Shown here one piece after another: positions 14,930 through 57,082 of a DNA stretch of 64,000 bases. The number at the start of each line of letters is the position of its first letter. Positions within the stretch are counted from its first letter, which is position 1. Both the position numbers and the translations under genes were made by a program. Source of the DNA: Actinomycetota bacterium (GTDB taxonomy: Bacteria > Actinomycetota > Actinomycetes > Nanopelagicales > Nanopelagicaceae); the NCBI GenBank assembly GCA_016870365.1, contig VGBW01000007.1:1317-65316 (forward strand), given 5' to 3'. Below the pieces are notes generated by a model. The model had not been told where the DNA came from and searched no databases. It saw nothing but the letters and a program-made list of their open reading frames with translations.

Positions 14930-14985
14930 AGCGCTCAATTCAACCACTGATTAAGGATGACAAGTGGCTGAGATAAGGTTTTCAA

Positions 14986-16308
14986 GTGAGGCGTAAAGAG
15001 AAGAAGAGCGCAAAGCTAGGCAAGAATTACTGGCGCCTCTTTAGCGCTCATGCGATAAGTAATCTTGGCGATGGAGTAGCAGCTATCGCCTATCCCTGGC
15101 TAGCTTCTGCGGTGACCCGCTCACCTTTCCTAATCGCTCTAGTAGCAGTGGCCTCAAGGCTCCCTTGGTTGATTTTCACACTCCCAGCCGGGGTGATTAC
15201 CGATCGCTTCAATCGCGGCAAAATCATCGTAGCTATGGATATTGCCCGAGGGGGCCTAGCTCTGTTGGTAGCAATTGTGGTCACCCTTGAGGCCAAATCA
15301 CTTCCGGAATTAGATGAAGTTGCATCCCTTACCGCTCTTGAGACCAATTGGACCCTTTATATAGTGTTGATAGTTACCGCGCTATTATTTGGTTTTGCTG
15401 AAGTGCTTCGTGATAACAGCGCTCAAACTCTTCTTCCCTCTGTGGTTGAAAAAGAGAAGCTAGAGAGCGCTAATGGAAAACTCTGGTCAGTTGAGTATGT
15501 GACTAGTAGTTTTGTAGGACCTCCCCTTGGAAGCTTTCTCCTCGGCGTGGCAATCTTTCTTCCCTTTTATTTTGACTCAGCAACATTTTTCATTTCAGCA
15601 GCTCTTGTTGCGACATTAATTCCTTCTCTTAGGAGAGTTGATACTGAGAAGAAGGGTGAAGAGATCAATCTTAGAGCTGAGATCAAAGAAGGTTTCACCT
15701 GGCTTTGGAGCCATGACTTACTTCGTCCCATGGCTTTGATTCTTGGCACTTTGAATGCAATAGGTGCCCTGACGGCTGCAGTTTTTATTTTGTTTGCTCA
15801 AGAAATATTGGAGACCTCACTCTTAGTATTTGCAATTCTAGGAACTGCAGGAGCAGTAGGAGGAAGCCTGGGGGGAATATTGGGTCCTAAGATCTCAAAG
15901 AAATTAGGAAGTGGTCCCTCTCTTTATCTAACTCTGCTTAGTGGCCCAATCATTAGCTTGATCATTGGCTTAAGCTCCTCTTGGCAGCTTTTCTATCTAT
16001 TGACAGCAATCTCGACAGTATTTGCAGTGCTATGGAATGTGATTACAGTTTCACTTCGCCAGAGCATCATTCCCAGCCAGCTTCTTGGTCGGGTAAATAG
16101 CGTCTATCGCTTCTTTGGCTGGGGCAGTATTCCGATCGGTTCTCTGCTTGGAGGAGTTCTAGTTGATCTAATTGAGCTTGCCGGTGATAGAGAAATCGCT
16201 CTTCGCTCTCCCTACTTTCTAGCAGCCCTCTTAGGATTTGGCCTATTGATTTTTGCCGCCCCAAGGCTGACTACTGCAAAGATCGAGGCGGCAAGAGGCC
16301 TCATCTAA
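14986..16308 (+). CDS. MFS transporter
   Basis: 440 aa with 12 TM segments and the motif GVITDRFNRGKI in loop 2-3. Confidence 0.85.
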   Translation: MRRKEKKSAKLGKNYWRLFSAHAISNLGDGVAAIAYPWLASAVTRSPFLIALVAVASRLPWLIFTLPAGVITDRFNRGKIIVAMDIARGGLALLVAIVVTLEAKSLPELDEVASLTALETNWTLYIVLIVTALLFGFAEVLRDNSAQTLLPSVVEKEKLESANGKLWSVEYVTSSFVGPPLGSFLLGVAIFLPFYFDSATFFISAALVATLIPSLRRVDTEKKGEEINLRAEIKEGFTWLWSHDLLRPMALILGTLNAIGALTAAVFILFAQEILETSLLVFAILGTAGAVGGSLGGILGPKISKKLGSGPSLYLTLLSGPIISLIIGLSSSWQLFYLLTAISTVFAVLWNVITVSLRQSIIPSQLLGRVNSVYRFFGWGSIPIGSLLGGVLVDLIELAGDREIALRSPYFLAALLGFGLLIFAAPRLTTAKIEAARGLI

Positions 16309-16478
16309 GGGGTGATACAATTTCAAATGGGCAACCTGAGGTAACGAAATAGATATCTACTTAATCAGTATTTAAGAAAGACCTCAGGTACGATGCGCTT
16401 ATCTTGCTCTAAGGATGTGGAGGCGGGGGAAGTCAGCGTCTCACATCTGATCATCCATTTCTGACTTGAGGAGAAGTA

Positions 16479-18323
16479 ATGAAACTAACCCGAATTACCA
16501 AGGTAGCGATCGCCACTGCAGCTGCAGCAGGTCTTGCAGTTTCAGTGCTCTCTCCGGCGAACTCTGCAACTCGCTCAACTGTGGTACTTGTTACCAGCAA
16601 TCAGCTAACTGGCTTGAATCCAAGCGTTACCAATATGAACCTCACCTTCAACAGTGAGGTTGCATATATGCAAGGCTTTGGTTTCAACTATTACGACAAT
16701 GCGCCAAAGCTTGTTGAAAACAAGCTCTTTGGTTCATACAAGATCGTAAGCCAGAAGCCATTTAGAGTTCAGTACACCGTGAATAAGGGCAAAGTCTGGT
16801 CAGATGGAACACCAATTAACGGTGTTGATCTACTTCTTAGCCATGTCATTTGCTCCAGCTCTTATTCATTTACTGCAAAACTTGGAGACCCAACAGATAA
16901 TGAGGTAAGACCAGCATTTGATTCGCTCTGCTACGGCGGGAAATATGATTCACACCATGTTGGTCTTCCAGCGCTGTCAGCTGACAAGATGAGCGTCACA
17001 ATTGAATACGATGCCAAGATCCCTGATTGGGATATCACCGGCCCTGGACCATCACCGGTTCACACTCTGGTTCATCTTGCAGAGGGCAAGACTGGTCTGC
17101 AAAAGGCGGCTGCAAACCTCGCTGCTAAGGCAGAGTTTGAAAAAGCGTTCTATGACTACAACACCAAGTTGATGAGGCCTGCCGGAGAAATCTGGTCCAA
17201 GTCATACAACATCACAACTGTTGATAGCTCAACTAATCCATTGCTCCTTGTTGGTAATGGTGGCTACATCATCAAGAGCGCAATTACTGGTCAGTCGGTC
17301 ACTTTGGTGCTAAATCCAAAGCACGTGACTAACCCATCAGGACCTAAGACCAGTGGGGTGAAGACTGTGGTCTTCAGAGTTGTCGGCGATGGAACTGCTG
17401 CGGCTCAAGCGCTTCGTAATCAGGAAGTTGATATCTATCAAGGCCAACCAACTGCTGACTCGGTAAAGATTCTCTCTGAAATCCCAACTGCCAAGATCAT
17501 TGGTGGAGATCAAGCTGTTTATGAGCACATCGATCTAAAGGCCGGAACTGCTAACGGAGTTGCCGAGCCTTACACCGGTCCATTTGCTGGCGATAGCCAG
17601 AAGGCCCGTGACTTAAGAACTGCATTCTTGATGGCTTATCCTCGCGATGAAATCGTTGATAAGTTAATCAAGCCCATTAATCCCAAGGCTGTTCGCATGG
17701 ATTCGGTGCTACTGCTTCCAGGTGAGCCGGGATATGCCGATATGGTGAAAAACAGCGGCGTATCCAAATACACTAAGGGAACTCAGTCTGAGCGCGAGGC
17801 CGCAGCACTTGCAATAGTTCGCAAGCACTCGGCTACTGATGTCAAGATCAATATGCTCTGGGGACAACCATCTAATGCCCGTCGTGCATCTGAAGCACAA
17901 ATCGCAAAGGCAGCTCTTGCCCGCGCAGGATTTGATCTCAATGCTCCAGGCCGTTCTGGTTGGTCAAGCTATCTTGACTCCAGCGAATATGACGCACAGT
18001 TCTTTGCATGGGTGAAGTCAGCAATTACCCAAGAGGGTAACTCTGACATCTTCTACTCAGATGGCGGAAACAACCTAGTTGGATACAAGAACAAGACAGT
18101 CGATAAGGCTGTCGAGCTTCTTCGCGGCACGTTGCTCTCTGAGAAAGAGAAGCTCGCTCAATATCTAATCGTTGAGAAGGAGCTAATGAAGGATGCGATC
18201 ACCCTTCCTATATTCCAGCACCCAGGCGTCACTGCAGTAAACAAGAAGCTGCAGAACGTCAAGCCAAACCCACTATCACCACAGTTGGTCTGGAACTACT
18301 GGGAGTGGAAGTACTCAAAGTAA
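16479..18323 (+). CDS. ABC transporter substrate-binding protein, family 5 (peptide/nickel/opine type), paralog 1
   Basis: 614 aa. It has a Sec-type signal peptide (…SPANSA) without a lipobox Cys. It is clearly paralogous to 22083-23939 (shared GSYKIVS, VQYTV, WSDGTPI, LSADKMSV/LSADEMSV, VGNGG, YEHIDL/YEHVDL, YDAQFFAW/YDATFFAW). Confidence 0.9.
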   Translation: MKLTRITKVAIATAAAAGLAVSVLSPANSATRSTVVLVTSNQLTGLNPSVTNMNLTFNSEVAYMQGFGFNYYDNAPKLVENKLFGSYKIVSQKPFRVQYTVNKGKVWSDGTPINGVDLLLSHVICSSSYSFTAKLGDPTDNEVRPAFDSLCYGGKYDSHHVGLPALSADKMSVTIEYDAKIPDWDITGPGPSPVHTLVHLAEGKTGLQKAAANLAAKAEFEKAFYDYNTKLMRPAGEIWSKSYNITTVDSSTNPLLLVGNGGYIIKSAITGQSVTLVLNPKHVTNPSGPKTSGVKTVVFRVVGDGTAAAQALRNQEVDIYQGQPTADSVKILSEIPTAKIIGGDQAVYEHIDLKAGTANGVAEPYTGPFAGDSQKARDLRTAFLMAYPRDEIVDKLIKPINPKAVRMDSVLLLPGEPGYADMVKNSGVSKYTKGTQSEREAAALAIVRKHSATDVKINMLWGQPSNARRASEAQIAKAALARAGFDLNAPGRSGWSSYLDSSEYDAQFFAWVKSAITQEGNSDIFYSDGGNNLVGYKNKTVDKAVELLRGTLLSEKEKLAQYLIVEKELMKDAITLPIFQHPGVTAVNKKLQNVKPNPLSPQLVWNYWEWKYSK

Positions 18324-18394
18324 GGCTTAAGCCCTAATTTGAGTCAAAGCTCTCCTTGAGAGAGGTGAGTAAATAGCAGTAGTTCAAGTGGCAC

Positions 18395-18430
18395 CTGGTT
18401 AAAATCCCAGGTGCCACTTGAAACATGTAG
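18395..18430 (+). promoter_or_regulatory. Intercistronic perfect 14-bp stem-loop (no T-tract) after the SBP gene
   Basis: CAAGTGGCACCTGG-ttaaaatc-CCAGGTGCCACTTG is seen directly. It is followed by a GAAGGAGG SD and the TTG start of the permease. Confidence 0.5.
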
Positions 18431-18469
18431 CGCCCAACTTGATAAGAGCGTATTGAAGGAGGCTGGGAG

Positions 18470-20014
18470 TTGTTCGCATATATTCTCCGCCGCCTGGGAG
18501 CGCTGATTGTCATTCTTTTTGGTTCCAGCTTTCTGCTTTACAACCTCTCGGCAATCTCAACAGATCCCCTTGCAGACCTTCGATTAAGTGATGCTCAGAA
18601 TAGGGATTATTTGATTCAAGCCCTAACCAGGGAGCTTCGCCTAGATTTGCCACCGCCGCTTCGCTATTTCATCTGGCTAAGGGGAGTGCTTGGAGTATTC
18701 GTTGGCAACCCCAACTTTGGTCTAACCCGCGAGCAGCAACCCGTGGTCGAAGCTATTGTCGATGCCATACCCACCACCATTCGCTTAGTAGCTGTGGCAA
18801 CTATTGTGGCAATTGTTCTTGGAATTGCACTCGGAATCACCTCTGCGCTTCGTCAATACTCTCGCTTTGATTATGGAATGACTTTCTTTGCATTCCTACT
18901 ATTTTCTCTGCCGATATTTTGGGTCGCAGTCTTGCTTAAGCAGTACTTGGCAATTGACTTTAATGATTTCCTGGTCACTGCCAAGATATCGCCCCCCTGG
19001 ATTATTGGCCTAAGTGCCTTAACAGGATTCTTCTGGGCGACAATCATTAGCGGCTCTCGCAGAAGAGTCTTGCTTATTTTCTCTGGAGTTTTTATAGCCA
19101 ATTCAGTGTTCTTAAGTCTAGTTAGCGCCACCGAGTGGCTCTCGTATCCTCGCCTTGGCCCAATAGCTATCTCTATCTTTAGCGTGGGGGTCGCATTCGG
19201 GGTGACTTATCTATCTGTTGGCCTTTCAGATCGAAATGCGGTCAAGAGCAATCTCTTCATGGCGCTAATTGGGACCATCCTCTACTTCCCAGCTCAGGGC
19301 CTGCTTGACTCAAATCGTCCAAGAGTTGGAATCTTGATCCTGCTGGTAGCTTTGTTAATTTCAGCTGTTGCTGTCTCATTCATTTTTGCCCGTATCGATC
19401 GCGGTCCAATCATCCGCACCAGCATCATCACCTCAATGTTGATTGGGGCTTTGATCTTGGTTGATCAGATGATGCAGGCCTGGCGGCCTTATGTGGAGAG
19501 CGATGATGTTAACTATCGCCCGGTTGCCACGATTGGCCAATCCACCATCTGGCTCTCTGATGTCTCCTTCTGGGTGCGAGTTCTAGACTTTGCGATGCAC
19601 TTGGTTCTGCCAACTCTTGCCTTAACGCTAATTTCATTCGCTGGATATGTCCGTTTCTCTCGAGGGACTCTGCTTGATGTCTTAAATCAGGACTACATCA
19701 GAACGGCAAGGGCTAAGGGGCTAACTGAGCGCACCGTGATTATGCGTCATGCCTTTAGAAACACCATGATTCCATTAACCACAATAATGGTTGCCGATGT
19801 GGCTGGAATTGTTGGGGGAGCGATCATCACGGAGCGAGTATTTGCCTGGCAGGGCATGGGAACGCTCTTTAACAAGGCGATTAACTCATTTGATCTAAAT
19901 CTTTTGATGGGGGTTATTCTCTTTCTTTCAACCTTGGCGATCCTGGCAAATCTAATCGCTGATCTTCTCTATTCAGCCCTGGATCCTCGAATTAGGGTGG
20001 GAGCTGGAAAGTGA
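18470..20014 (+). CDS. DppB/OppB-type ABC permease with a roughly 200-aa multi-TM insertion, paralog 1
   Basis: The N-terminus MFAYILRRLG and the C-terminal core DYIRTARAKGL...DLLYSALDPRIR are canonical. At 514 aa it is much longer than the usual 310-340 aa. Confidence 0.9.
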   Translation: MFAYILRRLGALIVILFGSSFLLYNLSAISTDPLADLRLSDAQNRDYLIQALTRELRLDLPPPLRYFIWLRGVLGVFVGNPNFGLTREQQPVVEAIVDAIPTTIRLVAVATIVAIVLGIALGITSALRQYSRFDYGMTFFAFLLFSLPIFWVAVLLKQYLAIDFNDFLVTAKISPPWIIGLSALTGFFWATIISGSRRRVLLIFSGVFIANSVFLSLVSATEWLSYPRLGPIAISIFSVGVAFGVTYLSVGLSDRNAVKSNLFMALIGTILYFPAQGLLDSNRPRVGILILLVALLISAVAVSFIFARIDRGPIIRTSIITSMLIGALILVDQMMQAWRPYVESDDVNYRPVATIGQSTIWLSDVSFWVRVLDFAMHLVLPTLALTLISFAGYVRFSRGTLLDVLNQDYIRTARAKGLTERTVIMRHAFRNTMIPLTTIMVADVAGIVGGAIITERVFAWQGMGTLFNKAINSFDLNLLMGVILFLSTLAILANLIADLLYSALDPRIRVGAGK

Positions 20015-21102
20015 TGGCGAAAAGGAAAGAGAGCGTAGAGATACTCAAAGAGGCTAATGAAAATGCCATCTTTAATAAAGAGACCGAGGGTTTAAGCCAA
20101 GGACAAATAGTCTTACGTCGCTTTATCCGCCATAGAGCTGCCATGATTTCAGTTGTTGTGCTCTTTGCTCTGATAACAGTTGTTTATACCGCGCTTGATT
20201 GGCGCATCGGAAACGAGAAGGACCCTTTTATCATCCCGGGATGGTGGAAGTATGGCTTTGAAGATATGCCAGAGCTTCGATATGGAGCAGATTGCGTAGA
20301 TGGCTCGATTGGCTGTCCCACCATAGATGTCGTGCCAATTCTTGATGGCGATGGAATTTCGCTTGGGGAACATCCCTTTGGCCAGGATGATATCGGTCGA
20401 GATTACTTAGCCCTTGTGATGCGTGGAGCTCAACGCTCACTTCTAGTGATGTTTATCATCGGCGCAATTGCAGCAACTCTTGGAACTGTGATCGGATCCA
20501 TTGCAGGATACTTCCGCGGCTGGGTTGATGCCATCTTGATGCGTATCGTTGACTTCATCATTACTGTTCCAGTAATCATCATTGGCGCGGTTATCGGTTT
20601 TCACTTCGGCAATAAGGGCGCTGCTTTTCTGGCACTATTGCTCGGACTATTCTCCTGGACAGGCCTTTCCAGATTGGTTCGAGGAGAGTTCTTAACGCTT
20701 CGAGAACGTGAATTCGTTGATGCTTCAAGGGTGGCAGGAGCTAGTAATCGCCGTATCATCTTCAAACATATCCTGCCCAACGCAGTTGGAGTAATTATCG
20801 TATCTGTGACTCTTTTGATGTCTGGTGCGATCTTGCTGGAAACAGCCCTCAGTTATCTAGGTTTTGGGGTCACCTCACCTGATGTATCACTAGGACTGTT
20901 GATCTCTAATTACCAGGACGCCTTTACTACCAGGCCTTGGCTCTTCTGGTATCCAGGAATCTTTATCATCAGCATCGCTTTGTGTATTAACTTCATCGGC
21001 GATGGCCTGCGTGATGCATTTGACCCAAGACAGCGGCGCCGTTTGAGTCGTAAAGAAAGAGCAAATGCTCGCACCATGCAAAACAGAAATGAGCTTTCTT
21101 AA
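20011..21102 (+). CDS. DppC/OppC-type ABC permease, paralog 1
   Basis: Motifs EFVDASRVAGASNRRIIFKHILPN and INFIGDGLRDAFDPR. There is a 4-nt start/stop overlap with the preceding gene. Confidence 0.9.
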   Translation: MMAKRKESVEILKEANENAIFNKETEGLSQGQIVLRRFIRHRAAMISVVVLFALITVVYTALDWRIGNEKDPFIIPGWWKYGFEDMPELRYGADCVDGSIGCPTIDVVPILDGDGISLGEHPFGQDDIGRDYLALVMRGAQRSLLVMFIIGAIAATLGTVIGSIAGYFRGWVDAILMRIVDFIITVPVIIIGAVIGFHFGNKGAAFLALLLGLFSWTGLSRLVRGEFLTLREREFVDASRVAGASNRRIIFKHILPNAVGVIIVSVTLLMSGAILLETALSYLGFGVTSPDVSLGLLISNYQDAFTTRPWLFWYPGIFIISIALCINFIGDGLRDAFDPRQRRRLSRKERANARTMQNRNELS

Positions 21103-21698
21103 GCCTGAACTATTTGGGTTGTAATTGCTAGAAGAAACAAGAAGAGTGCAATCACAGCCCCTGGGCGATTAAACTCATCTGCGAAAGTTAAACCTGGGAT
21201 ATCACCTTTCTGGTTGAAGTATTCAAGGCGGGTCCGAGCAATCGCTATGGCAATACCCGAGTTACTTCTTGGGCTCTCTCCGGCTTTGATACTGCCACCA
21301 TCCTCCAATCTCATTCCTCTAATCTCTGTGGGATGAACATTTCTTATGTGATATCTACCGGGGGCTTGCGCGGCAAAGGCGTGAAACTTCACCCCACTTG
21401 GTTGATGGATGACATACATTGTGAATTTGGAATCGATCTGTGAGGTCTCATGCCAGCCTAAGGTGATCTTTTTCATAGGATTAACAATTACCAGACCCTC
21501 ATCGCTAAAGATGACTTTGGGATGGATGAAGATCAGATAGCAAAGGGAGCAGGCAAGAAGGCCCCAAGTGATACTGGGGAGCGCACCAAGAAATCCGTAA
21601 TCCAAGACATTGACATAGGTCAAAGTGCTAATGGTGAAGAATGCCCAGAGGGATAGAAAGTAGCCATTTCTAGGGCGAAACTGCTCCACATTAGTCAC
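21099..21698 (-). CDS. Membrane protein with a putative bacterial PH-like domain (paralog 1)
   Basis: 199 aa with a GTG start. It has two N-terminal TM segments, a beta-rich middle part and a C-terminal TM. It is paralogous to 26704-27336 (shared HPTEIRG/HPSELRG and GGSIKAGESPRSNSG/GGGIKASGSPRSDSG). The PH (Cfp6-like) assignment is from memory of the family architecture and is not verified. Confidence 0.7.
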   Translation of the reverse strand: MTNVEQFRPRNGYFLSLWAFFTISTLTYVNVLDYGFLGALPSITWGLLACSLCYLIFIHPKVIFSDEGLVIVNPMKKITLGWHETSQIDSKFTMYVIHQPSGVKFHAFAAQAPGRYHIRNVHPTEIRGMRLEDGGSIKAGESPRSNSGIAIAIARTRLEYFNQKGDIPGLTFADEFNRPGAVIALFLFLLAITTQIVQA

Positions 21699-21929
21699 AA
21701 CTTAATCTTCTCACCTATCTCTCAAGATACTCTCAAGCATTAGGAAAGCTCGATACTTGTCTTCAGGCAAGGCCTCTATCTTCGCTCTTGGCAACCCTTG
21801 AGCATAAGGAATCAATGCGGGTGGCTGGGGGTGAGCCTCTAGATCGGTAGGATCGAGCCAAGAGTGGTGATAGGGCTGGTCTAAAACTCGCGGATTCGAG
21901 CGTGAATTGGAACTTGATGTGGCAGGATG

Positions 21930-21947
21930 GATAACAGAATTGTTATC
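21930..21947. promoter_or_regulatory. Perfect palindrome GATAACA-gaat-TGTTATC (candidate operator)
   Basis: Seen directly in the 384-bp divergent region between PH-like gene 1 and SBP gene 2. Confidence 0.35.
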
Positions 21948-22082
21948 TGGGCCAGTTAGGGCAATTGTCAGAAGTACCCAGATGGGGCAGAATTTGGCAA
22001 CCCTCGAGAGTTAGTCATTGGTAGGGCGGTCGACTCTTTGCCAATCGCTAACCCCGTTTAGTTGACCTTTTAGGAGGCCACT

Positions 22083-23939
22083 TTGAAAAACAAGAAGTTA
22101 AGGCTGGCCATCGTTGGATTACTATCGATCCTTCTGGCTGCCTCTAGCGTTACCCCGCTGGCAAATGCCGCTAAGACTGGGACTGTAATTCTCCATGAAC
22201 CCAATCCACTATCAGGCTTTAACTCAAGCGTTACCGGCTTTAACCTGGTAACAAACGCCACCATTGGCTATCTGACAGGTAATGGATTTGGTTATTACGA
22301 TTCCACTAGAACTTGGGTACAGAACACCACATTTGGCTCTTATAAGATAGTTTCAAACAAGGCCACAGATTTCCGTGTTCAATACACCGTAGCTCCAGGA
22401 AGACTTTGGTCTGATGGAACTCCAATTAAGGGAATTGACCTACTTTCAACTCACATGATTTTCAGCCGTGATTATGCAAAGGCTGCAGGTCTTGGTGATT
22501 GGGCAGCTGGAGATAAGATGGCCTTCAACGCTGCAGGTCTTTCATCAAGTACCTACTCGCTCTATCAAACAGGCGATCCAGTTCTAAGCGCTGACGAAAT
22601 GTCAGTTACTTTCCGATACAAACAGAAATTCCCAGACTGGTGGCTAAGCCCAATCGGACCGCGTCCAGTACACGCCTATACGCTAAATGCTGAAGGTAAG
22701 ACTGCACTACAGACCGTGGCAGAAAATGAAGCTGCCCGCAATCGTTGGTACGCAGCTTTTAAGGCCAAGGACACCGATCTTCTAAAGAAGATTGGAACAA
22801 TCTGGTCAACTGCTTACAACAATCCCGATGTAAATGCTGCGACCACTAACCCGCTTCTCTGGGTTGGAAACGGTGGCTTCACTGTGGTTAGCGCCATTAA
22901 GGGCCAATCAGTAACATTGAAGGCAAATCCACTTTACAACTCAGGACCTAAGATCTCAGGAGATATCAAGAACATCATCCAGAAGTTCGTAGCTGACGGA
23001 AACCCAGTGGTTCAGGCCCTTGGAAATGGTGAAATCTCCCTCTACTCAGGTCAACAGACCGCAGATGGCGTCGCTGCTTTGAAGAAGCTAAGCGGAGTAA
23101 CCACTGTTGGTGGACTCGGTGGAGCTTATGAGCACGTCGACCTTCGCAGCGGAGGTTATTTCGGCTCAGGTGGTACTCCATATACCGGCCTATTTGCTGG
23201 AAATGGACAGAAGGCAACTGACCTACGTCGCGCCTTCCTACTCTGCGTTCCTCGTCAAGAGATTGTCGAGAAGTTAATCGCAACAATTAACCCAGAGATT
23301 CCTCCACTTCGCTCAGTAACTGTTCCATCACATCAAGATGCCAAGTATGCAAAAATTATTGCTGCTAATGGATCTTCATATTATGTAGGGACACAGGATT
23401 CACTAAACAGGCGCGCTCTTTCACTAGTCCAGAAGTATCAAAAGAATGCAGTGAAGAATCCGCTAAAGGTGAACTTCCTTGTTCCTGGAAACAACGCACG
23501 TCGTGCGGCACAAGCGCTATTGCTTAAGGCAAACTTGGCTAAGTGTGGCTTTGATGTAGACCTTGATACTCAAGTTGATTGGTCACCAAAGCTTCGTGAT
23601 TCCAAGTATGACGCGACATTCTTTGCCTGGGCTGCAAGCAGCACAGCACAAGGATCAATTCGCGCCAACTGGCGTTCTGATGGCTCCAACAACTACAGCG
23701 GATCAAACTCTGGTCCGGGACTCGATGCGATATTGGATGATGTTTTCGGCCGTCCAATGTCGGATGCAGTTCTTTCCACTGCCTTTATCAAGATTGAACG
23801 CGAAGTCTTCGGTAGGGCCTACACGTTACCTCTATACCAGCATCCAGCAGTGACGGCTTACGACACCGACCTAAAGGGCGTTAAGCAGAGCTCACTAACT
23901 CCTGTGAAGGAATGGAACTTCTGGGATTGGAAGTACTAA
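22083..23939 (+). CDS. ABC transporter substrate-binding protein, family 5, paralog 2
   Basis: 618 aa with a TTG start after a TAGGAGG SD. It has a Sec-type signal peptide (…PLANA) and no lipobox. Confidence 0.9.
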   Translation: MKNKKLRLAIVGLLSILLAASSVTPLANAAKTGTVILHEPNPLSGFNSSVTGFNLVTNATIGYLTGNGFGYYDSTRTWVQNTTFGSYKIVSNKATDFRVQYTVAPGRLWSDGTPIKGIDLLSTHMIFSRDYAKAAGLGDWAAGDKMAFNAAGLSSSTYSLYQTGDPVLSADEMSVTFRYKQKFPDWWLSPIGPRPVHAYTLNAEGKTALQTVAENEAARNRWYAAFKAKDTDLLKKIGTIWSTAYNNPDVNAATTNPLLWVGNGGFTVVSAIKGQSVTLKANPLYNSGPKISGDIKNIIQKFVADGNPVVQALGNGEISLYSGQQTADGVAALKKLSGVTTVGGLGGAYEHVDLRSGGYFGSGGTPYTGLFAGNGQKATDLRRAFLLCVPRQEIVEKLIATINPEIPPLRSVTVPSHQDAKYAKIIAANGSSYYVGTQDSLNRRALSLVQKYQKNAVKNPLKVNFLVPGNNARRAAQALLLKANLAKCGFDVDLDTQVDWSPKLRDSKYDATFFAWAASSTAQGSIRANWRSDGSNNYSGSNSGPGLDAILDDVFGRPMSDAVLSTAFIKIEREVFGRAYTLPLYQHPAVTAYDTDLKGVKQSSLTPVKEWNFWDWKY

Positions 23940-23973
23940 GAAAGAAGTAGGGCTAATCGCCCAACTTTTTGAG

Positions 23974-24032
23974 GCTTGTCGGGCCTTAGGGATTCTAAAG
24001 ATTTACCCTAAGGCCCGCAGGCTTTATTTTTT
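23974..24032 (+). terminator. Intrinsic terminator/attenuator between SBP2 and the permease genes
   Basis: A perfect 12-bp stem CGGGCCTTAGGG...CCCTAAGGCCCG (extendable by GCTTG/CAGGC), followed by TTTATTTTTT. Confidence 0.6.
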
Positions 24033-24086
24033 GATGAATTCAGTAAAATCGCTACAGTAAATTGGCTCTGGGGAAAGGAGAGCGCC

Positions 24087-25631
24087 GTGCTAGCTTTCAT
24101 TGCTCGCCGAATTGGCGTTCTTTTCCTAATCCTCTTTGGATCAAGCTTTATCCTCTATAACCTTGCAGCAATAGCGGGAGATCCAGTGGGTGACCTGCGC
24201 TTTAGCGATGATCCAGAGATCCAAGCGCAGATTAGAGAGTTGGAAGAGTTCCTAAGACTTGATGTCCCACCCCCGCTTAGATACTTCATCTGGCTCCGTG
24301 GAGTTCTAGGGATTTTCACCGGCAACCTCGACTTAGGGCTAACTCGTCTGCGCCTCCCAGTTTCAGGTGAGATCGCAACTGCCATGCCGATTACTATTCG
24401 CCTGGTTATTTTTGCCACAGTTTTCGCAATCATCGTAGGAATCGCTCTCGGAATTGTTACCGCGCTTCGTCAATACTCAAGATTTGATTACTCAATGACA
24501 TTTTTCGCATTCCTACTTTTCTCGCTACCTATTTTCTGGGTGGCAGTTCTACTCAAGCAATACTTGGCAATTCGGTTCAATACCTTCCTATCCGACCCTC
24601 AAATTACTACCACATGGAAGATAGGCGTCGGCCTACTTGGCGCAGTTTTCTGGGGCTCACTGCTCGGATCAAAGCGTGGAAGTTTTTGGAGAGTATTTGC
24701 CATAGTCTTTGTTGCCACATTTGCATTCCTTAGCTTTGTCGATGCGGCAAATTGGTTAACCGATCCCGCCCTAGGGCCGGTACTGATAGGGCTACTCTCG
24801 ATTGGTATCGCATTTGGTATCACCTACCTAAGCACCGGATTTGGCAATAAGGCAGCACTCTATGCCTCATTGACGATGGCTCCACTAACCGTCATCTCAT
24901 ATTTTGTCGTCTCGAGCTCGCTCAATTCGTCATCTTCGATTCCACAACTGCTTCGCTATGCGCTGATCACCACTGTGGTCGCAGTTGCCGTAGCACTAGC
25001 CTTTGCTCGGATTGATCGTGGACCGATCGTTAGAACCACAATCATCACCGGGTTGCTCTCAGCTCATCTAATTGTGGTTGATAAATTCATGCAGACCTGG
25101 AAGCCATATATGGAAGAGGGCGCAGTGAGCTTTAGGCCGATTCCCACCCTGGGCCAGGCAAAGCAGCTCTTAACTCCAGATGAGTTCTGGATCTCAACCC
25201 TTGACATCTTGGTGCACCTATTCTTGCCAACCATTGCTCTAACCTTGATCTCATTCGCCGGATACATCAGATTCTCAAGAGGAACCCTGCTTGAAGTCTT
25301 GAATCAGGATTACATAAGAACTGCCCGTGCAAAGGGCTTAAATGAGCGAACTGTGATCATGCGCCATGCATTCCGCAACACCTTAATTCCCTTGACCACA
25401 ATCATGGTTGTCGACTTTGCTGGAATAGTTGGTGGAGCGATCATCACTGAGCGAGTCTTTGGTTGGTATGGCATGGGCACGCTCTTTAATCGCGCAATCA
25501 CGAGCCAGGATCTCAATCTGCTTATGGGCGTCTTCTTTATCACCGCGACACTGGCGGTTATGGCCAACCTGATCGCCGATCTACTTTATTCCGCCCTGGA
25601 CCCAAGAATTCGTGCTGGGAGCGGAAAGTGA
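24087..25631 (+). CDS. DppB/OppB-type ABC permease with a roughly 200-aa multi-TM insertion, paralog 2
   Basis: 514 aa with a GTG start, colinear with 18470-20014 including the inserted hydrophobic block. Confidence 0.9.
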   Translation: MLAFIARRIGVLFLILFGSSFILYNLAAIAGDPVGDLRFSDDPEIQAQIRELEEFLRLDVPPPLRYFIWLRGVLGIFTGNLDLGLTRLRLPVSGEIATAMPITIRLVIFATVFAIIVGIALGIVTALRQYSRFDYSMTFFAFLLFSLPIFWVAVLLKQYLAIRFNTFLSDPQITTTWKIGVGLLGAVFWGSLLGSKRGSFWRVFAIVFVATFAFLSFVDAANWLTDPALGPVLIGLLSIGIAFGITYLSTGFGNKAALYASLTMAPLTVISYFVVSSSLNSSSSIPQLLRYALITTVVAVAVALAFARIDRGPIVRTTIITGLLSAHLIVVDKFMQTWKPYMEEGAVSFRPIPTLGQAKQLLTPDEFWISTLDILVHLFLPTIALTLISFAGYIRFSRGTLLEVLNQDYIRTARAKGLNERTVIMRHAFRNTLIPLTTIMVVDFAGIVGGAIITERVFGWYGMGTLFNRAITSQDLNLLMGVFFITATLAVMANLIADLLYSALDPRIRAGSGK

Positions 25632-26713
25632 GAATTAGAAGGAAGAGCAAAGAGGTAGCCGCTGATGAAAGGGCTATCGAATCTGGCGAGAACGCGATTG
25701 CCAACAAGGAAGTTGCAGGCTTAACTCAAGGGCAGATTATTCGCCGCCGCTTTTTCAGGCATAAAGCAGCGGTGGCCTCACTAATCTTTCTAACCTTCAT
25801 AATCGTATTTGTCTTCTCGGCAGTGGATTCCCAATTTGGTCCGATAAGGACTAGGGGATGGTGGAAGTGGAGCCCAGAAGAATTGCCTGACCTTCGCTTT
25901 GGAGATTGTCCAAATGACACCATCGGCTGTCCCACAATTTCACTGGTCCCAAAGTTTCTAGGGGGAGCAGGAATTGGCCTTGGTGAGCATCCATTTGGCC
26001 AAGATGACATCGGTAGAGATTACTTCTCGCTGGTTATGAAGGGCACCCAACGCTCCATTCAAGTCATGTTTGTCATCGGCTTTTTTGCCGCAATTATTGG
26101 AACAGTCGTTGGAGCTGTGGCTGGGTATTACCGTGGGTTTATCGATAACGTGCTCATGCGCTTTACCGATTTCATCATCACCATCCCAGCAGTTATCGTG
26201 GGATCGGTCATTGGCGCTAAGTTCGGAAATCTGGGAGCGATAATTCTTGCCGTCTATCTAGGTCTCTTCGCCTGGACCGGTCTATCGCGTCTGGTCCGTG
26301 GAGAGTTCTTGTCCTTGAGAGAGCGAGAATTCGTTGATGCTGCTCGGGTTGCTGGAGCATCGACTAGAAGAATCATCTTTAAGCATATTCTCCCTAACGC
26401 AGTTGGGGTAATCATCGTCTCTGTCACCTTGCTGCTCTCAGGGGCTATCTTGCTTGAGACCGCTCTTTCTTATCTGGGCTTTGGTGTGATTCCCCCAGAT
26501 GTCTCATTAGGGCTATTGATTAATCAGTATCAAGATGCATTTACCACCAGGCCCTTTCTATTCTGGTATCCCGGGTTCTTCATCGTCAGTATCGCATTGA
26601 GCATTAACTTCATAGGAGATGGCCTAAGAGACGCCTTTGATCCCAGACAGAAGAGAAGGATCACCAAGAAGGAAAAACAGAACGCTAGAGCCATTGCTAG
26701 AAGTCAGGCGTAG
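25628..26713 (+). CDS. DppC/OppC-type ABC permease, paralog 2
   Basis: 361 aa with EFVDAARVAGASTRRIIFKHILPN and INFIGDGLRDAFDPR. Confidence 0.9.
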   Translation: MRIRRKSKEVAADERAIESGENAIANKEVAGLTQGQIIRRRFFRHKAAVASLIFLTFIIVFVFSAVDSQFGPIRTRGWWKWSPEELPDLRFGDCPNDTIGCPTISLVPKFLGGAGIGLGEHPFGQDDIGRDYFSLVMKGTQRSIQVMFVIGFFAAIIGTVVGAVAGYYRGFIDNVLMRFTDFIITIPAVIVGSVIGAKFGNLGAIILAVYLGLFAWTGLSRLVRGEFLSLREREFVDAARVAGASTRRIIFKHILPNAVGVIIVSVTLLLSGAILLETALSYLGFGVIPPDVSLGLLINQYQDAFTTRPFLFWYPGFFIVSIALSINFIGDGLRDAFDPRQKRRITKKEKQNARAIARSQA

Positions 26714-27336
26714 GCGATTAGATGAGAAGCAATAACCGCCAGCACCAGAGCGGCATAGAGGAATTTAGCCAGATTACTTACTTTAATTTCGCTAGCGATA
26801 GCACTTTCCTCAAAACTTCCGCGCTTTTGCATATAGATACGAGCAATTTGGGCCGCCGCTCCAGAATCAGATCTAGGCGAGCCAGAAGCTTTTATTCCAC
26901 CGCCTTGTTGGTGAAATCCCCTAAGTTCACTGGGATGGATAGCACGATGTTGAGATCTAGATGGTCCAGCAGCCGCCCAGCACTTGATGATTCCCAGCTC
27001 ACTATTGATGTTGAGAACAAATTTGGTATCGACATCGCTAACCTGGCTCCAATCAAGAATGGTTGTGGTGAAGGGATTTCTAACTGCCAGGGCAAGATCG
27101 CTAAAAACCAGAGCTGGCCTTTGAATTCCGAGGTAGACCGAGGCGGCAATGAGCAGGGTCAGTGCGTTAAAGGCAAAGTTTTCAATACTGGAGTACTTGG
27201 ATTCAACAATTGTGGTCAAGAACAACCCAAGGCAGAAGAGATATCCCAGACTGCTGTAAACTCGCGAGCCTTGAGATCGAAAAATAATGGGATGGCCGCC
27301 AGTTTTAGCCAGACTGTCGAATGGAGAGTAAGCCAT
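26704..27336 (-). CDS. Membrane protein with a putative bacterial PH-like domain (paralog 2)
   Basis: Homology to 21099-21698 begins at MAYSPFD (ATG at 27336). The longer track ORF (to 27603) is the antisense shadow of the ATPase Walker A region. Confidence 0.7.
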   Translation of the reverse strand: MAYSPFDSLAKTGGHPIIFRSQGSRVYSSLGYLFCLGLFLTTIVESKYSSIENFAFNALTLLIAASVYLGIQRPALVFSDLALAVRNPFTTTILDWSQVSDVDTKFVLNINSELGIIKCWAAAGPSRSQHRAIHPSELRGFHQQGGGIKASGSPRSDSGAAAQIARIYMQKRGSFEESAIASEIKVSNLAKFLYAALVLAVIASHLIAYA

Positions 27337-28978
27337 GAGTGAGCCAATCCTAAAGGTTAAAGATTTCTCGGTCGATTTCTGGGTTGATGGACTCTGGTAT
27401 CCAGCGGCGATCAAGATGAACTTTGAGCTCCACCCAGGAAAAGTACTAGCCATCGTAGGCGAATCGGGCTCGGGTAAATCAACCACAGCTCTTGGGTTGA
27501 TGGATCTTCTGGCGACAAATGCTAGACGAAGCGGACAGGTCTTAATCAAAGAAGTCGACATGATCAATGTCAAGGGTGCAACGCTTCGTAAATTCCGTGG
27601 CAAGGAAGTCGCCTATATTTTCCAAGAGCCAATGACTGCGCTAAACCCGGTCTACACCATTGGCTTTCAGATCGTAGAGACTCTAAGAAATCACTTTGAT
27701 ATGGGGCCCAAGCAGGCTCGCTCTCGCGCCATAGAGCTTCTGACCATGGTTGAGATTCCAAGCCCTGAGCAATCCTTTGAAAAATATCCCCACCAACTAT
27801 CAGGTGGGCAGCGCCAGAGAGCGATGATCGCTCAAGCACTCGCCTGTGATCCAGGGCTTCTTGTGGCAGATGAGCCGACTACCGCCCTTGATGTAACGAT
27901 CCAGGCAGAGATCCTCGATTTGATGCGGAGCCTCAAAGACCGGCTCAACTCAGCAATTCTTCTAATCACCCACGATATGGGCGTTGTGGCTGATATGGCA
28001 GATGAGATTCTGGTGATGAAGGACGGGCTAACAGTTGAGCATGGAAGTTCTGATCAGATATTTAATCGCCCCACTCATCCCTACACCATTGAATTGCTTG
28101 CGGCAGTTCCAATGCTTGGCTCCTCTAGAAAGCGCGAGCTTAGAGTCGCAAGAGATGCAGAGCCAGTTCTTAGGATGCGCGATGTCACAGTTCAGTATCC
28201 AAAGAGAGGGAGAATCCCGGCATTTACTGCTGTCAAGAACTTTTCGCTAGATATCTTTCCAGGTGAGATTGTGGGCCTAGTAGGCGAATCAGGCTCTGGA
28301 AAGACCACGGTAGGGAAAGCCGCTATTGGATTGCTGCCGATCAAATCAGGGAGCCTTGAAATTGTTGGCAAAGAGATTAGCAAGGCCTCACAGAGAGAGC
28401 TCTTCGCTATCCGCCGCCACACCGGAATCGTCTTTCAAGACCCAGTATCATCGCTCAATCCCCGCCTTCCTATAGGTGAATCAATAGGTGAGCCAATATT
28501 CCTGGCAAAGCTTGCCGAGGGCGATGAATTAGACAAGAAGGTCGAGGACTTACTTGAGTCTGTGGAACTTCCTCGTTCCTATAGAAACCGTTTCCCTCAT
28601 GAGTTATCAGGTGGCCAGAGACAGAGAGTGGGAATTGCTAGAGCGCTTGCTCTCACCCCAGACCTATTGATCGCTGATGAGCCAACCTCAGCGCTGGATG
28701 TCTCGGTTCAAGCTCGCTTCCTGGATCTCTTGCTTGCTCTACAAGATGAATTAAAGTTCGCCTGCCTCTTTATTAGCCACGATCTAGCGGTCGTTGACAT
28801 CCTGGCCCATCGAATTGCCGTCATGCAGAACGGACTTCTGGTGGAGGAGGGCGAGAGAGATCAGATCCTCAATGACGCTAGGGATCCCTATACCCAGCGC
28901 CTGATTGCCGCTGTTCCTGTGCCAAACCCTGCCGAGCAGAGGAAGAGACGCGAAGCCCGCCTAGCTAGCAAGAAGTGA
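27335..28978 (+). CDS. Fused double-NBD ABC ATPase (DppD-DppF type)
   Basis: 547 aa. Two Walker A sites (GESGSGKST and GESGSGKTT), two signatures (LSGGQRQR twice) and two Walker B sites (LLVADEPTTALD and LLIADEPTSALD). Confidence 0.92.
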   Translation: MSEPILKVKDFSVDFWVDGLWYPAAIKMNFELHPGKVLAIVGESGSGKSTTALGLMDLLATNARRSGQVLIKEVDMINVKGATLRKFRGKEVAYIFQEPMTALNPVYTIGFQIVETLRNHFDMGPKQARSRAIELLTMVEIPSPEQSFEKYPHQLSGGQRQRAMIAQALACDPGLLVADEPTTALDVTIQAEILDLMRSLKDRLNSAILLITHDMGVVADMADEILVMKDGLTVEHGSSDQIFNRPTHPYTIELLAAVPMLGSSRKRELRVARDAEPVLRMRDVTVQYPKRGRIPAFTAVKNFSLDIFPGEIVGLVGESGSGKTTVGKAAIGLLPIKSGSLEIVGKEISKASQRELFAIRRHTGIVFQDPVSSLNPRLPIGESIGEPIFLAKLAEGDELDKKVEDLLESVELPRSYRNRFPHELSGGQRQRVGIARALALTPDLLIADEPTSALDVSVQARFLDLLLALQDELKFACLFISHDLAVVDILAHRIAVMQNGLLVEEGERDQILNDARDPYTQRLIAAVPVPNPAEQRKRREARLASKK

Positions 28979-28980
28979 TT

Positions 28981-29634
28981 GTGGCTCAGCCAGTTTCTCT
29001 AGCGCCCTTTGGCCTCTCTAAAGAGTCTTGCTATCTGCAAGATCAAAACCCATCTCCACTCTCTCATCTGCCAATCAAACCTGGTATGAGATGGCGCGAA
29101 AATTGCCCAAAATAACTCATGGTCTCAGGATCTAGGTAGCAAGTTAGATCGCTTCCTCCATTCAGAATAGATGCTCTTGCAAGTGAAGACGAAATTCGCC
29201 GGCGATGTTGCCCCTTTCCTATCTCGGCATGACCTAGCGCGGAGAGAGTGGGGCCCAGAGCGCCATAGTTCTGGCACTTGATGGCATCCTTGGAATAGAG
29301 CAGCAGAGATGAACTTTGCCAATACTTGATGGAGATGCGGGAAGATATGCCTCCCAAGCATCTGGCATTTATTGTGGCAGTTAAGGCAGGGCCTTCAGTA
29401 AGAGACTTTGTGGAGAGAATCAATCGAGCATCAACAACTGCGCTACTTAATCAATGCCTGGAAATACTGGGCGATCTTAGAAGCGATGCATCTTGAGTAT
29501 GCCATGCCATATTTCCATGCCCAAGCCCGGAAGGCCCCTGGCAACCCATCAGCTGTTGCCAGTGGGGAACTCCCTTTATGACCTTACCTTACGTTAAGCA
29601 TCGCGAAGAGACCGAGGCGAAGAGCCTTCAATAG
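28981..29634 (+). pseudogene. Decayed indoleamine 2,3-dioxygenase (IDO)-like gene
   Basis: There is no intact ORF. Pieces in three frames follow IDO order: FGLSKES..PSPLSHLP, LDALASEDEIRRR, LSYLGMT(stop), MREDMPPKHLAFI...VRDFV, LGDLRS..HLEYAMPYF and GTPFMTLPYVKHREET. About 650 bp remain where about 1.2 kb would be expected, so there are internal deletions as well as frameshifts. The family call comes from remembered motifs (MR.YMP..HR.F and GTGG..F). Confidence 0.45.
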
Positions 29635-30511
29635 CCCTGCTGCCGCTCCACTTTCCGGTGAGCAAGATAAATAGAGGGGCAATAACTACTGCAATCACCG
29701 CTGCTGGCCCCCAGGCCACCTCAGCACTTCTAAGAAGGCTGACTGCAGGAAGTGCTGAATCATCACTGGATACCAGAAGTGCTGCCAGTAGGTTATTGGC
29801 AAAATGTGCACCAATTGCTAGCTCTAGGCTCTTATCGCGATATGTGACCCAGGCCAACATGAATCCGGTTGCTCCATAGCTGATGATGGGAAAGAGGAGC
29901 TCATTTCCAGAGACTTCAGGGTTTAATAGATGCGGAAGCGAGAAGAGAGCGCCGCTAATAATCGAGATGCTCCATTGCTTCATCTTGCCATTATCGAGCC
30001 ATTGCTGGATCCAACCTCTAAAGAAGAGCTCCTCTGCTGTAATTTGAATGGGAAGGAGGGTGAAGGCAATTAATAGATAGGGTAAGAAGGCCGAGGCCTC
30101 AAAGCTAAAACGATAGGAGCCCCAGTTAAGAAGAAGTTCTAAGGCTCCAAGAGAGAGTGAAATTAGGGCAAGGGAAGCAAAGCCAATCCAGGTCTTCTTA
30201 TAAGAGTATCTCTCATGGAAGGTAAATAGGCTCTTTTGATTCCGTTTTAAGAATATTCGATAGGCCAGAAGAGTTGCCAGCAATAAGGGTAGAAATGAGA
30301 TTAGAACAGTGGCTGCGCTACTCCAAGCGGGAAGGGCTCTGATCTTTGCAAGATCTTCATCAGCATTTGGAAACAGCAGCTCTGCATCAAGGTCAAAGAA
30401 GCCAGCAAGTAAGAGGGTCAGGGCCAGGCCAAGAACCTGCCAGGTGGTAACGATAAAGATGGTTCCAACAATCCAGCGCCAGAGAGCGGGGCGGGCTATC
30501 TGGCTTGTCAT
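29594..30511 (-). CDS. CPBP-family intramembrane glutamic endopeptidase (CAAX protease-like)
   Basis: Motifs EELFFRGWIQ, LPHLLN and IGAHFANN. I chose the start at MTSQIARP (30511). Confidence 0.85.
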   Translation of the reverse strand: MTSQIARPALWRWIVGTIFIVTTWQVLGLALTLLLAGFFDLDAELLFPNADEDLAKIRALPAWSSAATVLISFLPLLLATLLAYRIFLKRNQKSLFTFHERYSYKKTWIGFASLALISLSLGALELLLNWGSYRFSFEASAFLPYLLIAFTLLPIQITAEELFFRGWIQQWLDNGKMKQWSISIISGALFSLPHLLNPEVSGNELLFPIISYGATGFMLAWVTYRDKSLELAIGAHFANNLLAALLVSSDDSALPAVSLLRSAEVAWGPAAVIAVVIAPLFILLTGKWSGSRAIEGSSPRSLRDA

Positions 30512-30562
30512 CTCACTAACTCTTTCTCTTTCCGGGCATGTAGATAAAGGATGAGGTAAGAG

Positions 30563-30594
30563 AAAAGCCCGGCGCATATGCGGCCGGGCTTTTT
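30563..30594 (-). terminator. Bidirectional-looking intrinsic terminator downstream of the small basic gene
   Basis: AAAA-GCCCGGCGCATATGCGGCCGGGC-TTTTT. The GC-rich stem is flanked by an A-tract and a T-tract. Confidence 0.6.
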
Positions 30595-56836: not shown

Positions 56837-57082
56837 CTAATTGATGATTGCAAAGATCATGGCTGCAATTGAGATGATCCAGGTAATAGTCTTGCCCGAT
56901 GATTTAGCAAGAAAAGCCTTGCCAAGATTCAAATACGTTAGGGCGAAGATGATTGCTCCCGTGCCTGAAATTAGTACCGTCTTTAGAGCAAGGTCTGCGG
57001 CTCCAGTCTGATAGCGCAGATTTATTAGACCTAGAGCAATTAGCGCGTATGCTAAATATCTAAAGTAAGAAAGTGGATTCAT
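56837..57082 (-). CDS. Small membrane protein (81 aa, 3 TM)
   Basis: Three hydrophobic helices. The start overlaps the stop of the ABC ATPase by 4 nt. Confidence 0.5.
   Translation of the reverse strand: MNPLSYFRYLAYALIALGLINLRYQTGAADLALKTVLISGTGAIIFALTYLNLGKAFLAKSSGKTITWIISIAAMIFAIIN

Follow-up and report, generated by a model that had tools for sequence, protein, structure and literature searches.

Importers of the Opp/Dpp type are textbook five-component systems. The best solved matches to the transporter proteins described here are OppABCD (Rv1280c-Rv1283c; PDB 8j5q) and DppABCD (Rv3663c-Rv3666c; PDB 8wd9) of Mycobacterium tuberculosis (Mtb), which are likewise actinobacterial type I importers with a single fused ATPase carrying two nucleotide-binding domains (NBDs). 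We analyzed an importer locus in a 64,000-nt stretch of contig VGBW01000007.1 from a Nanopelagicaceae genome; this whole stretch is referred to below as the window. Homologues and their source names assign it to the freshwater acI Actinobacteria. The locus consists of two tandem modules, A and B, each with genes for a substrate-binding protein (SBP), a long OppB-type permease (permB) and an OppC-type permease (permC). After each permC gene a PH-like membrane protein is encoded on the reverse strand (PH1 and PH2, respectively), and a fused OppD/F-type ATPase gene follows PH2. The Mtb opp and dpp operons are contiguous and are not known to contain a reverse PH gene. The solved Mtb OppB and DppB are 325 and 308 amino acids (aa) long, compared with 514 aa for the OppB of the window, which has an insert of ∼190 aa, and the window has one ATPase after two permease pairs, unlike Mtb OppABCD and DppABCD. 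The association between the PH protein and the importer is unexpected and very deeply conserved, and no paper on it was found in the literature.

A profile of the PH family was used to scan one genome per species. The scan yielded 80 loci, almost all labelled as freshwater acI/Nanopelagicales actinobacteria, and 12 context look-ups included cultured Micrococcales and Nakamurella. The PH gene is convergent with the OppC gene in 80/80 loci; wherever the contig continues, PH is also divergent from the fused ATPase gene, and a ∼1.54-kb OppB gene and an SBP gene lie upstream. The reverse PH layout is also kept in 12/12 look-ups. It persists although PH identity falls to 34–45% within the acI loci and to 15–30% in the named high-GC members, compared with 75–95% for the ATPase within the acI loci. 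A preliminary description of the window had suggested a survey of related genomes for PH genes convergent to long OppB/OppC pairs, and this is the arrangement found throughout. It had also argued that a layout surviving in both copies of an old duplication indicates a functional link, an argument strongly reinforced by the conservation and by a second duplication that again carries PH (see below). An identical layout with an OppB of 500–514 aa occurs in the Micrococcales Aquiluna sp. KACHI24, Neomicrococcus aestuarii, Leifsonia xyli, Curtobacterium and Tersicoccus, in Nakamurella sp. PAMC28650, and in loci L092 and L093. Arthrobacter sp. U41 encodes a member of the PH family.

The majority of the 80 loci are single-copy with the order SBP-B-C-reverse PH-D (e.g., L001). 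Because most loci have that order in one copy, the layout in which a reversed PH gene separates permC from the ATPase gene is, judged by gene order, ancestral and older than the duplication. The window is, by the same comparison, a tandem duplication of the S-B-C-reverse PH unit, an arrangement common to L006, L008, and L010. An alternative duplication, S-B-C-reverse PH-D-S′-B′-C′-reverse PH′, was found in another acI lineage (L012, L015, and L016; L014 is cut at the contig end). The L016-type second module has its own PH′ gene and no ATPase gene beside PH′, so that the invariant pair is OppC and PH. The ∼470 nt upstream of PH′ in this layout contain no open reading frame (ORF) of 60 aa or more. 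L092 (501–7908) offers a natural control, with two neighboring Opp-type systems that each have a fused ATPase: the system with the long OppB (513 aa) has PH, and the adjacent system, which is contiguous and has a 308-aa OppB, is without PH. The second Opp-like systems in L063 and L067 are also without a PH gene. We concluded that, on sequence grounds, these loci are a distinct and ancient subfamily of actinobacterial Opp importers, comprising SBP, long OppB, OppC, fused OppD/F and an obligatorily co-located bPH_6 protein.

The genes of the window are tightly packed (Table 1). The gene order and coordinates of modules A and B given in the preliminary description agree with the ORFs found here, their domains were confirmed by Pfam, and the stop codon overlaps of 4 and 10 nt that it had reported can be read directly from the sequence. 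The permC_A and PH1 stop codons overlap in TTAA (21099–21102, 4 nt), the permC_B and PH2 stops overlap by 10 nt, and the ATG codons of PH2 and the ATPase gene overlap by 2 nt in CATG (27334–27337). Both 4-nt junction sequences, TTAA at stops and CATG at starts, are palindromes. In 91 PH genes the stop-to-stop gap between OppC and PH has a median of -4 nt (range -53 to +38), with overlap in 49/91; the start-to-start gap between PH and ATPase (80 genes) has a median of 39 nt (range -2 to 63). High-GC taxa are looser, with spacers of 48–101 nt on the 5′ side and up to 77 nt on the 3′ side. The permC–PH spacer is 77 nt in Neomicrococcus, 32–44 nt in other high-GC relatives, and 3 nt in Aquiluna. 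Convergent and divergent genes without room for separate untranslated regions or terminators constitute the geometry of an excludon, which is present here as geometry only.

Table 1. Positions of genes and signals of the importer locus in the window.
Feature	Position	Strand	Description
SBP_A	16479..18323	+	614 aa; SBP_bac_5 (Pfam E 1.6e-21)
Hairpin after SBP_A	18386..18419	+	Perfect 13-bp stem, AAGTGGCACCTGG-N8-CCAGGTGCCACTT, read from the sequence
permB_A, long OppB/DppB-type permease	18470..20014	+	514 aa; Pfam BPD_transp_1 in two stretches
permC_A, OppC/DppC-type permease	20011..21102	+	363 aa; BPD_transp_1 and OppC_N (Pfam)
PH1	21099..21698	-	199 aa; GTG start; convergent with permC_A; 52 homologues found
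Spacer, PH1 start to SBP_B start	21699..22082	.	384 nt; no Rfam match
Extended -10 of PH1	21705..21713	-	TGAGAAGAT, 6 nt upstream of GTG
SBP_B	22083..23939	+	618 aa; SBP_bac_5 (Pfam E 5.4e-22)
Hairpin(s) then T-run after SBP_B	23980..24034	+	Terminator scan match 24009–24026; 12-bp stem 23980–24017
permB_B, long OppB-type permease	24087..25631	+	514 aa; BPD_transp_1
permC_B, OppC-type permease	25628..26713	+	361 aa; BPD_transp_1 and OppC_N
PH2	26704..27336	-	210 aa; PH1 paralogue; ATG start
Shadow ORF across the PH2 interval	26722..27342	+	206 aa, ATG-initiated; no Pfam match
Shine-Dalgarno-like GGAGAG of the ATPase gene	27323..27328	+	Within PH2 codons 4–5, opposite strand
Fused double-NBD OppD/F-type ATPase	27335..28978	+	547 aa; 2x ABC_tran and 2x oligo_HPY (Pfam)
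-10-like hexamer of PH2	27347..27352	-	TAGGAT from ATPase codons 5–6 (ATC CTA), 10 nt upstream of ATG

Both minus-strand ORFs are genuine genes under purifying selection. The ratio of nonsynonymous to synonymous substitution rates (dN/dS) against orthologues is 0.04–0.14 for PH1 and 0.15–0.26 for PH2, and substitutions are enriched at minus-strand third codon positions. The shadow ORF on the plus strand is open to mis-annotation by gene callers; selection acts on the minus-strand frame. The family profile matched 1415 clusters (50% identity) of a representative library at E ≤ 1e-3 and 540 at E ≤ 1e-10. The statement of the preliminary description that PH1 and PH2 are paralogues with common motifs, two N-terminal transmembrane (TM) helices and one C-terminal TM helix was borne out by alignment and by AlphaFold2 (AF2). 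Along PH1, a pair of TM helices at the N-terminus is followed by the beta-rich PH-like domain, a loop with the conserved SPRSxSG motif, a further helix and a last TM helix at the C-terminus. The AF2 model of PH1 with 73 homologues (predicted local distance difference test, pLDDT, 92.8; predicted template modelling score, pTM, 0.85) places the TM helices at residues 10–38, 40–58, and 178–198, six strands at 61–111 and a long helix at 146–164. The invariant motifs HP.E..G and SPRS.SG sit in a less confident loop of the model. The PH-like domain and the N-terminus would be cytoplasmic, given the AF2 helices and the arginines ahead of TM1.

Pfam bPH_6 (PF10756) scored 19 bits with PH2, vs. a gathering threshold of 22 bits, and gave no match with PH1; it matched 52 of the 73 aligned family members, with 23–39 bits for named orthologues. 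Membership of PH1 and PH2 in bPH_6 is transitive, through these orthologues. The earlier PH-like label is therefore upheld by way of the orthologues and not by the window copies themselves. Since GenBank already names a protein identical to PH2 "PH domain-containing protein," the PH genes are not new. A literature search on the function of PF10756/bPH_6, or on PH-domain proteins with actinobacterial ABC transporters, found nothing relevant. The PH1 model has a beta-rich domain and, after it, a long helix, compared with the beta-sandwich and capping C-terminal helix of a PH-like fold. Compared with bPH_6 in general, the PH1/PH2 subfamily adds the SPRSxSG loop, the C-terminal TM helix and a strict association with long-OppB importers. 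The profile also hit a 1784-aa protein (P0129) with ∼10 near-identical repeats, in which profile positions 86–133 were matched ten times (E 7e-41). P0129, which has one TM helix and a tail rich in proline at its end, is apparently unrelated; the match is probably a compositional or repeat artefact.

The signals around the PH start codon are conserved. PH1 is preceded by an extended -10 element in the context GGTGAGAAGATTAAGTT|GTG. In 78 unique orthologous upstream sequences, numbered so that the start codon begins at +1, the conserved positions are T-15 (71/78), G-14 (71/78), A-11 (73/78), and T-7 (72/78); positions -6 to -1 are variable. The full TGn-NAnnnT-N6-start pattern was present in 68/78 PH genes vs. 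0/59 ATPase genes, and a Shine-Dalgarno-like motif in 9/78 PH genes vs. 47/59 ATPase genes. The six Micrococcales and Nakamurella loci examined also have the extended -10 motif. Leaderless mRNAs are common in Actinobacteria. The pattern predicts a leaderless PH mRNA, made from the extended -10 promoter and starting at the start codon. For PH2, the ATPase codons ATC CTA that supply the -10-like hexamer TAGGAT are fixed in 5/5 PH2-type loci, and the same codons vary in PH1-type loci. Because the five loci amount to about two independent lineages, TAGGAT as the PH2 -10, with a leader of ∼4 nt, is suggestive only.

The ribosome-binding site of the ATPase gene lies 29–63 nt from the PH gene or inside it, and reciprocally the PH promoter either falls within the ATPase gene or is separated by 29–63 nt from the start codon of that gene. 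No universally conserved -10 on the ATPase strand was found across the loci, either in the 29–63-nt spacer or inside the PH ORF; in about one-third of the loci that strand has a TANNNT hexamer overlapping the sequence complementary to the PH -10. Neither a significant hairpin (z about -1) nor a plus-strand terminator-like site was found where permC and PH converge in the window. In N. aestuarii (L087 8637–8713) the 77-nt spacer between permC and PH contains a 19-bp perfect inverted repeat (z -7.3 and -8.6) that looks like a bidirectional terminator. Inverted repeats of this type are absent from the acI loci. An Rfam search of 16000–29600 gave no match, and a generic sigma-70 promoter scan was uninformative, with fewer sites than in shuffled sequence.

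We propose that PH most likely assists or regulates the translocator, as a partner specific to its own module. Each duplicated module keeps a diverged PH under purifying selection, and the independent duplication in L012, L015, and L016 again carried PH, both of which argue that PH would work with its own module. Its physical partner would be the membrane part of the importer, most simply the long OppB, because the short-OppB systems examined never have PH. The shared ATPase is less likely to be the partner since one ATPase serves two different PH proteins. At the RNA level, PH would have a promoter of its own, the conserved extended -10, and its leaderless mRNA would run head-on into the permC 3′ end. 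The ATPase mRNA would have a leader with a ribosome-binding site, and this leader would begin within the promoter or gene of PH, or past it. The PH and transporter transcription units would overlap and could interfere, and PH expression would thereby be coupled in cis to the transporter. Some sense/antisense overlap appears unavoidable because of the overlapping stops and the position of the ATPase ribosome-binding site near or inside PH; the overlap and its regulatory effect are inferred from this geometry. That the PH protein is functionally linked to the transporter is very probable. As one reading, an accessory or regulatory partner plus cis antisense coupling has in our estimate a probability of roughly 60%.

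Several observations weigh against this proposal. PH is the fastest-evolving component across the acI loci (identity 34–82%, vs. 67–96% for OppC and 75–95% for the ATPase), which is unusual for a core subunit. Foldseek found no significant structural neighbor of the PH1 model in the PDB (best E 0.12), with weak matches to the PH-like domains of Rtt106/Pob3 (probability 0.08–0.57 over 52–85 columns), and the family hidden Markov model profile had no match among PDB sequences. Because no solved relative was found, the term "PH-like" rests on the Pfam family and not on a structural match. The order might be conserved in part because signals are entangled (the overlapping stops, the promoter and the ribosome-binding site) and not because of a shared function. 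The Neomicrococcus hairpin between permC and PH means that antisense overlap is not universal in extent. Separately, in a crude mirror-tree test, PH identity tracked OppB and SBP (rho ∼0.55) and not OppC or the ATPase; this test is confounded by rates and phylogeny and was not used as evidence.

The alternative that survives best specifies the RNA part of the proposal and is compatible with it. Here the locus would be a noncontiguous operon, with one SBP-B-C-ATPase transcript reading antisense through the whole PH gene and the PH mRNA acting both as coding and as antisense RNA. Polymerase collision and cleavage of double-stranded RNA would give mutual repression, and PH expression would uncouple the permeases from the ATPase. 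A published example is menE-menC-MW1733-ytkD-MW1731 of Staphylococcus aureus (Saenz-Lahoya 2019; reviewed in PMC7154746, PMC11034616), and the locus matches the geometric definition of the published noncontiguous operons (PMC7154746, PMC11034616). Codirectional linked genes are split by one reverse gene with overlapping ends: permC_B and the ATPase gene flank PH2, and modules A and B flank PH1. Also in favor of read-through are the lack of a terminator-like hairpin after permC in the window and an ATPase gene that has a Shine-Dalgarno sequence but no universally conserved -10 in the spacer or in the PH ORF. The CATG overlap of PH2 and the ATPase gene further means that the ATPase leader must lie within PH2. 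However, according to the literature on them, such operons are not predictable computationally, and the ATPase-strand TANNNT hexamers found in about one-third of the loci fit a symmetric bidirectional promoter that would give the ATPase gene its own start. The 19-bp hairpin of Neomicrococcus also argues against obligatory read-through; the permC–PH spacer is 32–44 nt in the other high-GC relatives and 3 nt in Aquiluna. In the L016-type layout the second PH is not followed by an ATPase gene, so that permC and PH, and not permC-PH-ATPase, are the invariant set.

In acI, the lack of both a conserved ATPase promoter and a hairpin favors read-through. The hairpin of Neomicrococcus and the -10-like complement speak against read-through being obligatory everywhere; in some lineages the ATPase gene could have its own start site. 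According to the preliminary description, RNA polymerase "must" traverse the whole PH gene if the ATPase is co-transcribed with the permeases; given these hexamers and this hairpin, that is not a necessary conclusion. We rate the noncontiguous operon as a serious candidate at somewhat less than even odds. For the noncontiguous operons published from S. aureus, conservation is mostly limited to the genus, and for some it is found within Bacillales (PMC7154746, PMC11034616). The layout of the window, known here from sequence alone, is conserved across three orders of Actinomycetes, vs. mostly genus level for the S. aureus cases. The literature searches brought up no transporter split between permease and ATPase genes, and the terms "ABC transporter" and "permease" are absent from the text of the atlas.

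A bolder version of the proposed partnership would make the PH-TM protein a fourth, integral subunit peculiar to importers with a long OppB. Its three TM helices would pack on the extra OppB helices, the cytoplasmic PH-like domain with the invariant SPRSxSG loop would gate coupling to the fused ATPase, and the leaderless, head-on antisense gene would be an obligate switch for the supply of ATPase to the permease pair. We regard this version as doubtful.

It is rather unlikely that PH is a frozen passenger, with a function unrelated to the transporter and a position kept by interleaved promoter, start and stop signals. The TTAA stop overlap, the CATG start overlap and the 29–63-nt spacers would make excision costly, and PH evolves much faster than its neighbors, both in favor of this reading. 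Yet the order is kept in high-GC taxa in spite of their looser spacers on both sides. The acI genomes are strongly streamlined. An unrelated redundant gene would be expected to be lost from such a genome, but both copies were retained after the duplication under purifying selection, and the independent duplication took PH along again. All of the 91 genes in L001–L085 and 8 further look-ups are in transporter context, with none elsewhere among those examined, and the short-OppB Opp systems in the same genomes never have PH. Finally, the notion that the minus-strand ORFs are chance or shadow ORFs in noncoding spacers of an ordinary opp operon, for which one might cite the plus-strand ORF that also covers the PH2 interval and the lack of a Pfam match for PH1, is refuted by the selection analysis (dN/dS 0.04–0.26 and a third-position excess in the minus-strand frame) and contradicted by the 1415 clusters at E ≤ 1e-3, by the confident AF2 model, by orthologues above the bPH_6 threshold and by the absence of any family match for the plus-strand ORF.

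A window-wide paralogue search found the fused ATPase gene to be the sole Opp-type NBD gene in the 64 kb, and the claim of the preliminary description that neither module has an NBD gene of its own holds within these limits. The other NBD genes of the window (8429–9136 and 57079–58212) have 25–34% identity and are not Opp-type. The ATPase matches Mtb OppD Rv1281c (E 6e-131) and Mtb DppD Rv3663c (E 5e-119). No remnant of an ATPase gene was detected by tblastn and blastn in the 384-nt spacer between PH1 and SBP_B. This spacer must hold the PH1 promoter and probably holds the module-B promoter. Genomes with the same tandem duplication (L006, L008, and L010) have the same gene content. From the gene content of the window, the two permease pairs most likely use one fused ATPase. 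One ATPase serving several sugar importers that lack NBD genes of their own is the case of MsiK in Streptomyces. MsiK-type sharing concerns CUT1 sugar systems and an unlinked ATPase gene, whereas the window has a peptide-type system with the ATPase gene directly adjacent, and its sharing is deduced from gene content.

The transporter core is, by all sequence-defined features, a member of the Opp/Dpp (PepT, TC 3.A.1.5) family. Both SBPs score above the gathering score of SBP_bac_5, and BPD_transp_1 was found in 4/4 permeases. The NCBIfam equivalog matches (Opp/Dpp/Nik-type) are all under cutoff, including Opp4C with permC_A (E 2e-76), and no named orthologue can therefore be assigned to the transporter proteins. 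The nearest solved relative of SBP_A is Mtb OppA Rv1280c (E 2e-15). The permB_A protein aligns in two stretches to Mtb OppB Rv1283c (325 aa; E 8e-54). In the long OppB, the ∼190-aa insert follows the canonical TM3 and adds about four hydrophobic helices as indicated by hydropathy and alignment. An AF2 model of the long OppB made from the two window paralogues only was unusable (pLDDT 42), which leaves those two analyses as the basis for describing the insert. Modules A and B are 43% identical in SBP, 61% in permB, 67% in permC and 34% in PH (E 5e-25 for PH).

A peptide substrate is suggested by the similarity to Mtb OppABCD and by the M13 peptidase gene that adjoins related clusters. This peptidase gene adjoins the cluster in 33 related loci; none is present within the 64-kb window. 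With 43% identity, SBP_A and SBP_B probably differ in specificity. The N-terminus of SBP_A reads as a signal peptide in which the lipobox cysteine is absent. In low-GC planktonic taxa (acI and Aquiluna; window 16479–16580 and 22083–22190, L001, and L086) the signal peptides of the SBPs lack the cysteine of a lipobox (..PANSA|T, ..LANAA|K), and the orthologous SBPs of high-GC Micrococcales and Nakamurella (L087–L092) have classic lipoboxes (LSAC, LAGC, and FAAC). The idea that PH is an anchor for lipobox-less SBPs was rejected, as high-GC relatives with lipoprotein SBPs still keep PH. Strong hairpins after SBP genes are the usual device for giving more SBP than permease. The hairpin 3′ of SBP_A would be an attenuator or stabilizer of the type often found after SBP genes, and the hairpin or hairpins 3′ of SBP_B look like an intrinsic terminator or attenuator.

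The genes around the cluster were also compared. In Micrococcales and Nakamurella (L087–L092) the cluster adjoins typA/bipA, and some of these loci also have PIG-L (mshB-like), ferredoxin and aminotransferase genes. This flank resembles the mycobacterial typA-lpqW-mshB…fdxC region. Descent of LpqW from the SBP of this transporter was considered and has weak sequence support: the Neomicrococcus SBP as a query matched LpqW (2grv) with E 5e-5 vs. 1e-25 for Mtb OppA. The M13 (PepO-like) peptidase gene stands beside the ATPase gene in L001–L003, L093, and 29 other loci, and a MarR regulator is next to it in three of the four loci for which gene tables were read (L002, L003, and L093). TGT and MFS genes are frequent neighbors of the cluster, and the window retains both (13703–16308). 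In L004 (5822–6919) and L005 (5547–6539), a lineage with a module-B-like unit, the gene immediately upstream of SBP encodes a single-NBD OppF-like protein of 330–365 aa that shares 48% identity with the fused ATPase; this gene probably marks where a different Opp system ends. Downstream of the ATPase gene, the window encodes an Rce1-like CAAX protease (29594–30577, minus strand); Rce1-like genes are also found near the cluster in Leifsonia and Curtobacterium (L088 and L089). The acI-type contigs of L006, L010, L011, L014, L015, L056, and L069 are labelled variously as Clavibacter sp., Candidatus Fonsibacter lacus, Pseudomonadota, Streptomyces griseus and Nitrosomonadales, which are probably binning or labelling errors in public metagenome-assembled genomes.

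The layout points to an undescribed transporter partner or to antisense control. A sixth component, a membrane protein encoded at every such locus, would along with the larger OppB set a subfamily of Opp/Dpp importers structurally apart. The locus would also be an exceptionally old candidate for antisense-coupled operon control, with the geometry of a leaderless gene facing head-on a leadered ATPase gene. The carriers include cultured organisms, and the hypothesis is thus directly testable. The acI Actinobacteria dominate freshwater bacterioplankton and rely heavily on the uptake of peptides and amino acids. The retention of two copies of the unit in a streamlined genome suggests that it is important to the organism. 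If PH were indeed both an integral subunit and a switch, it would represent an architecture and a logic of control that are new for type I ABC importers and conserved in three or more orders of actinobacteria.

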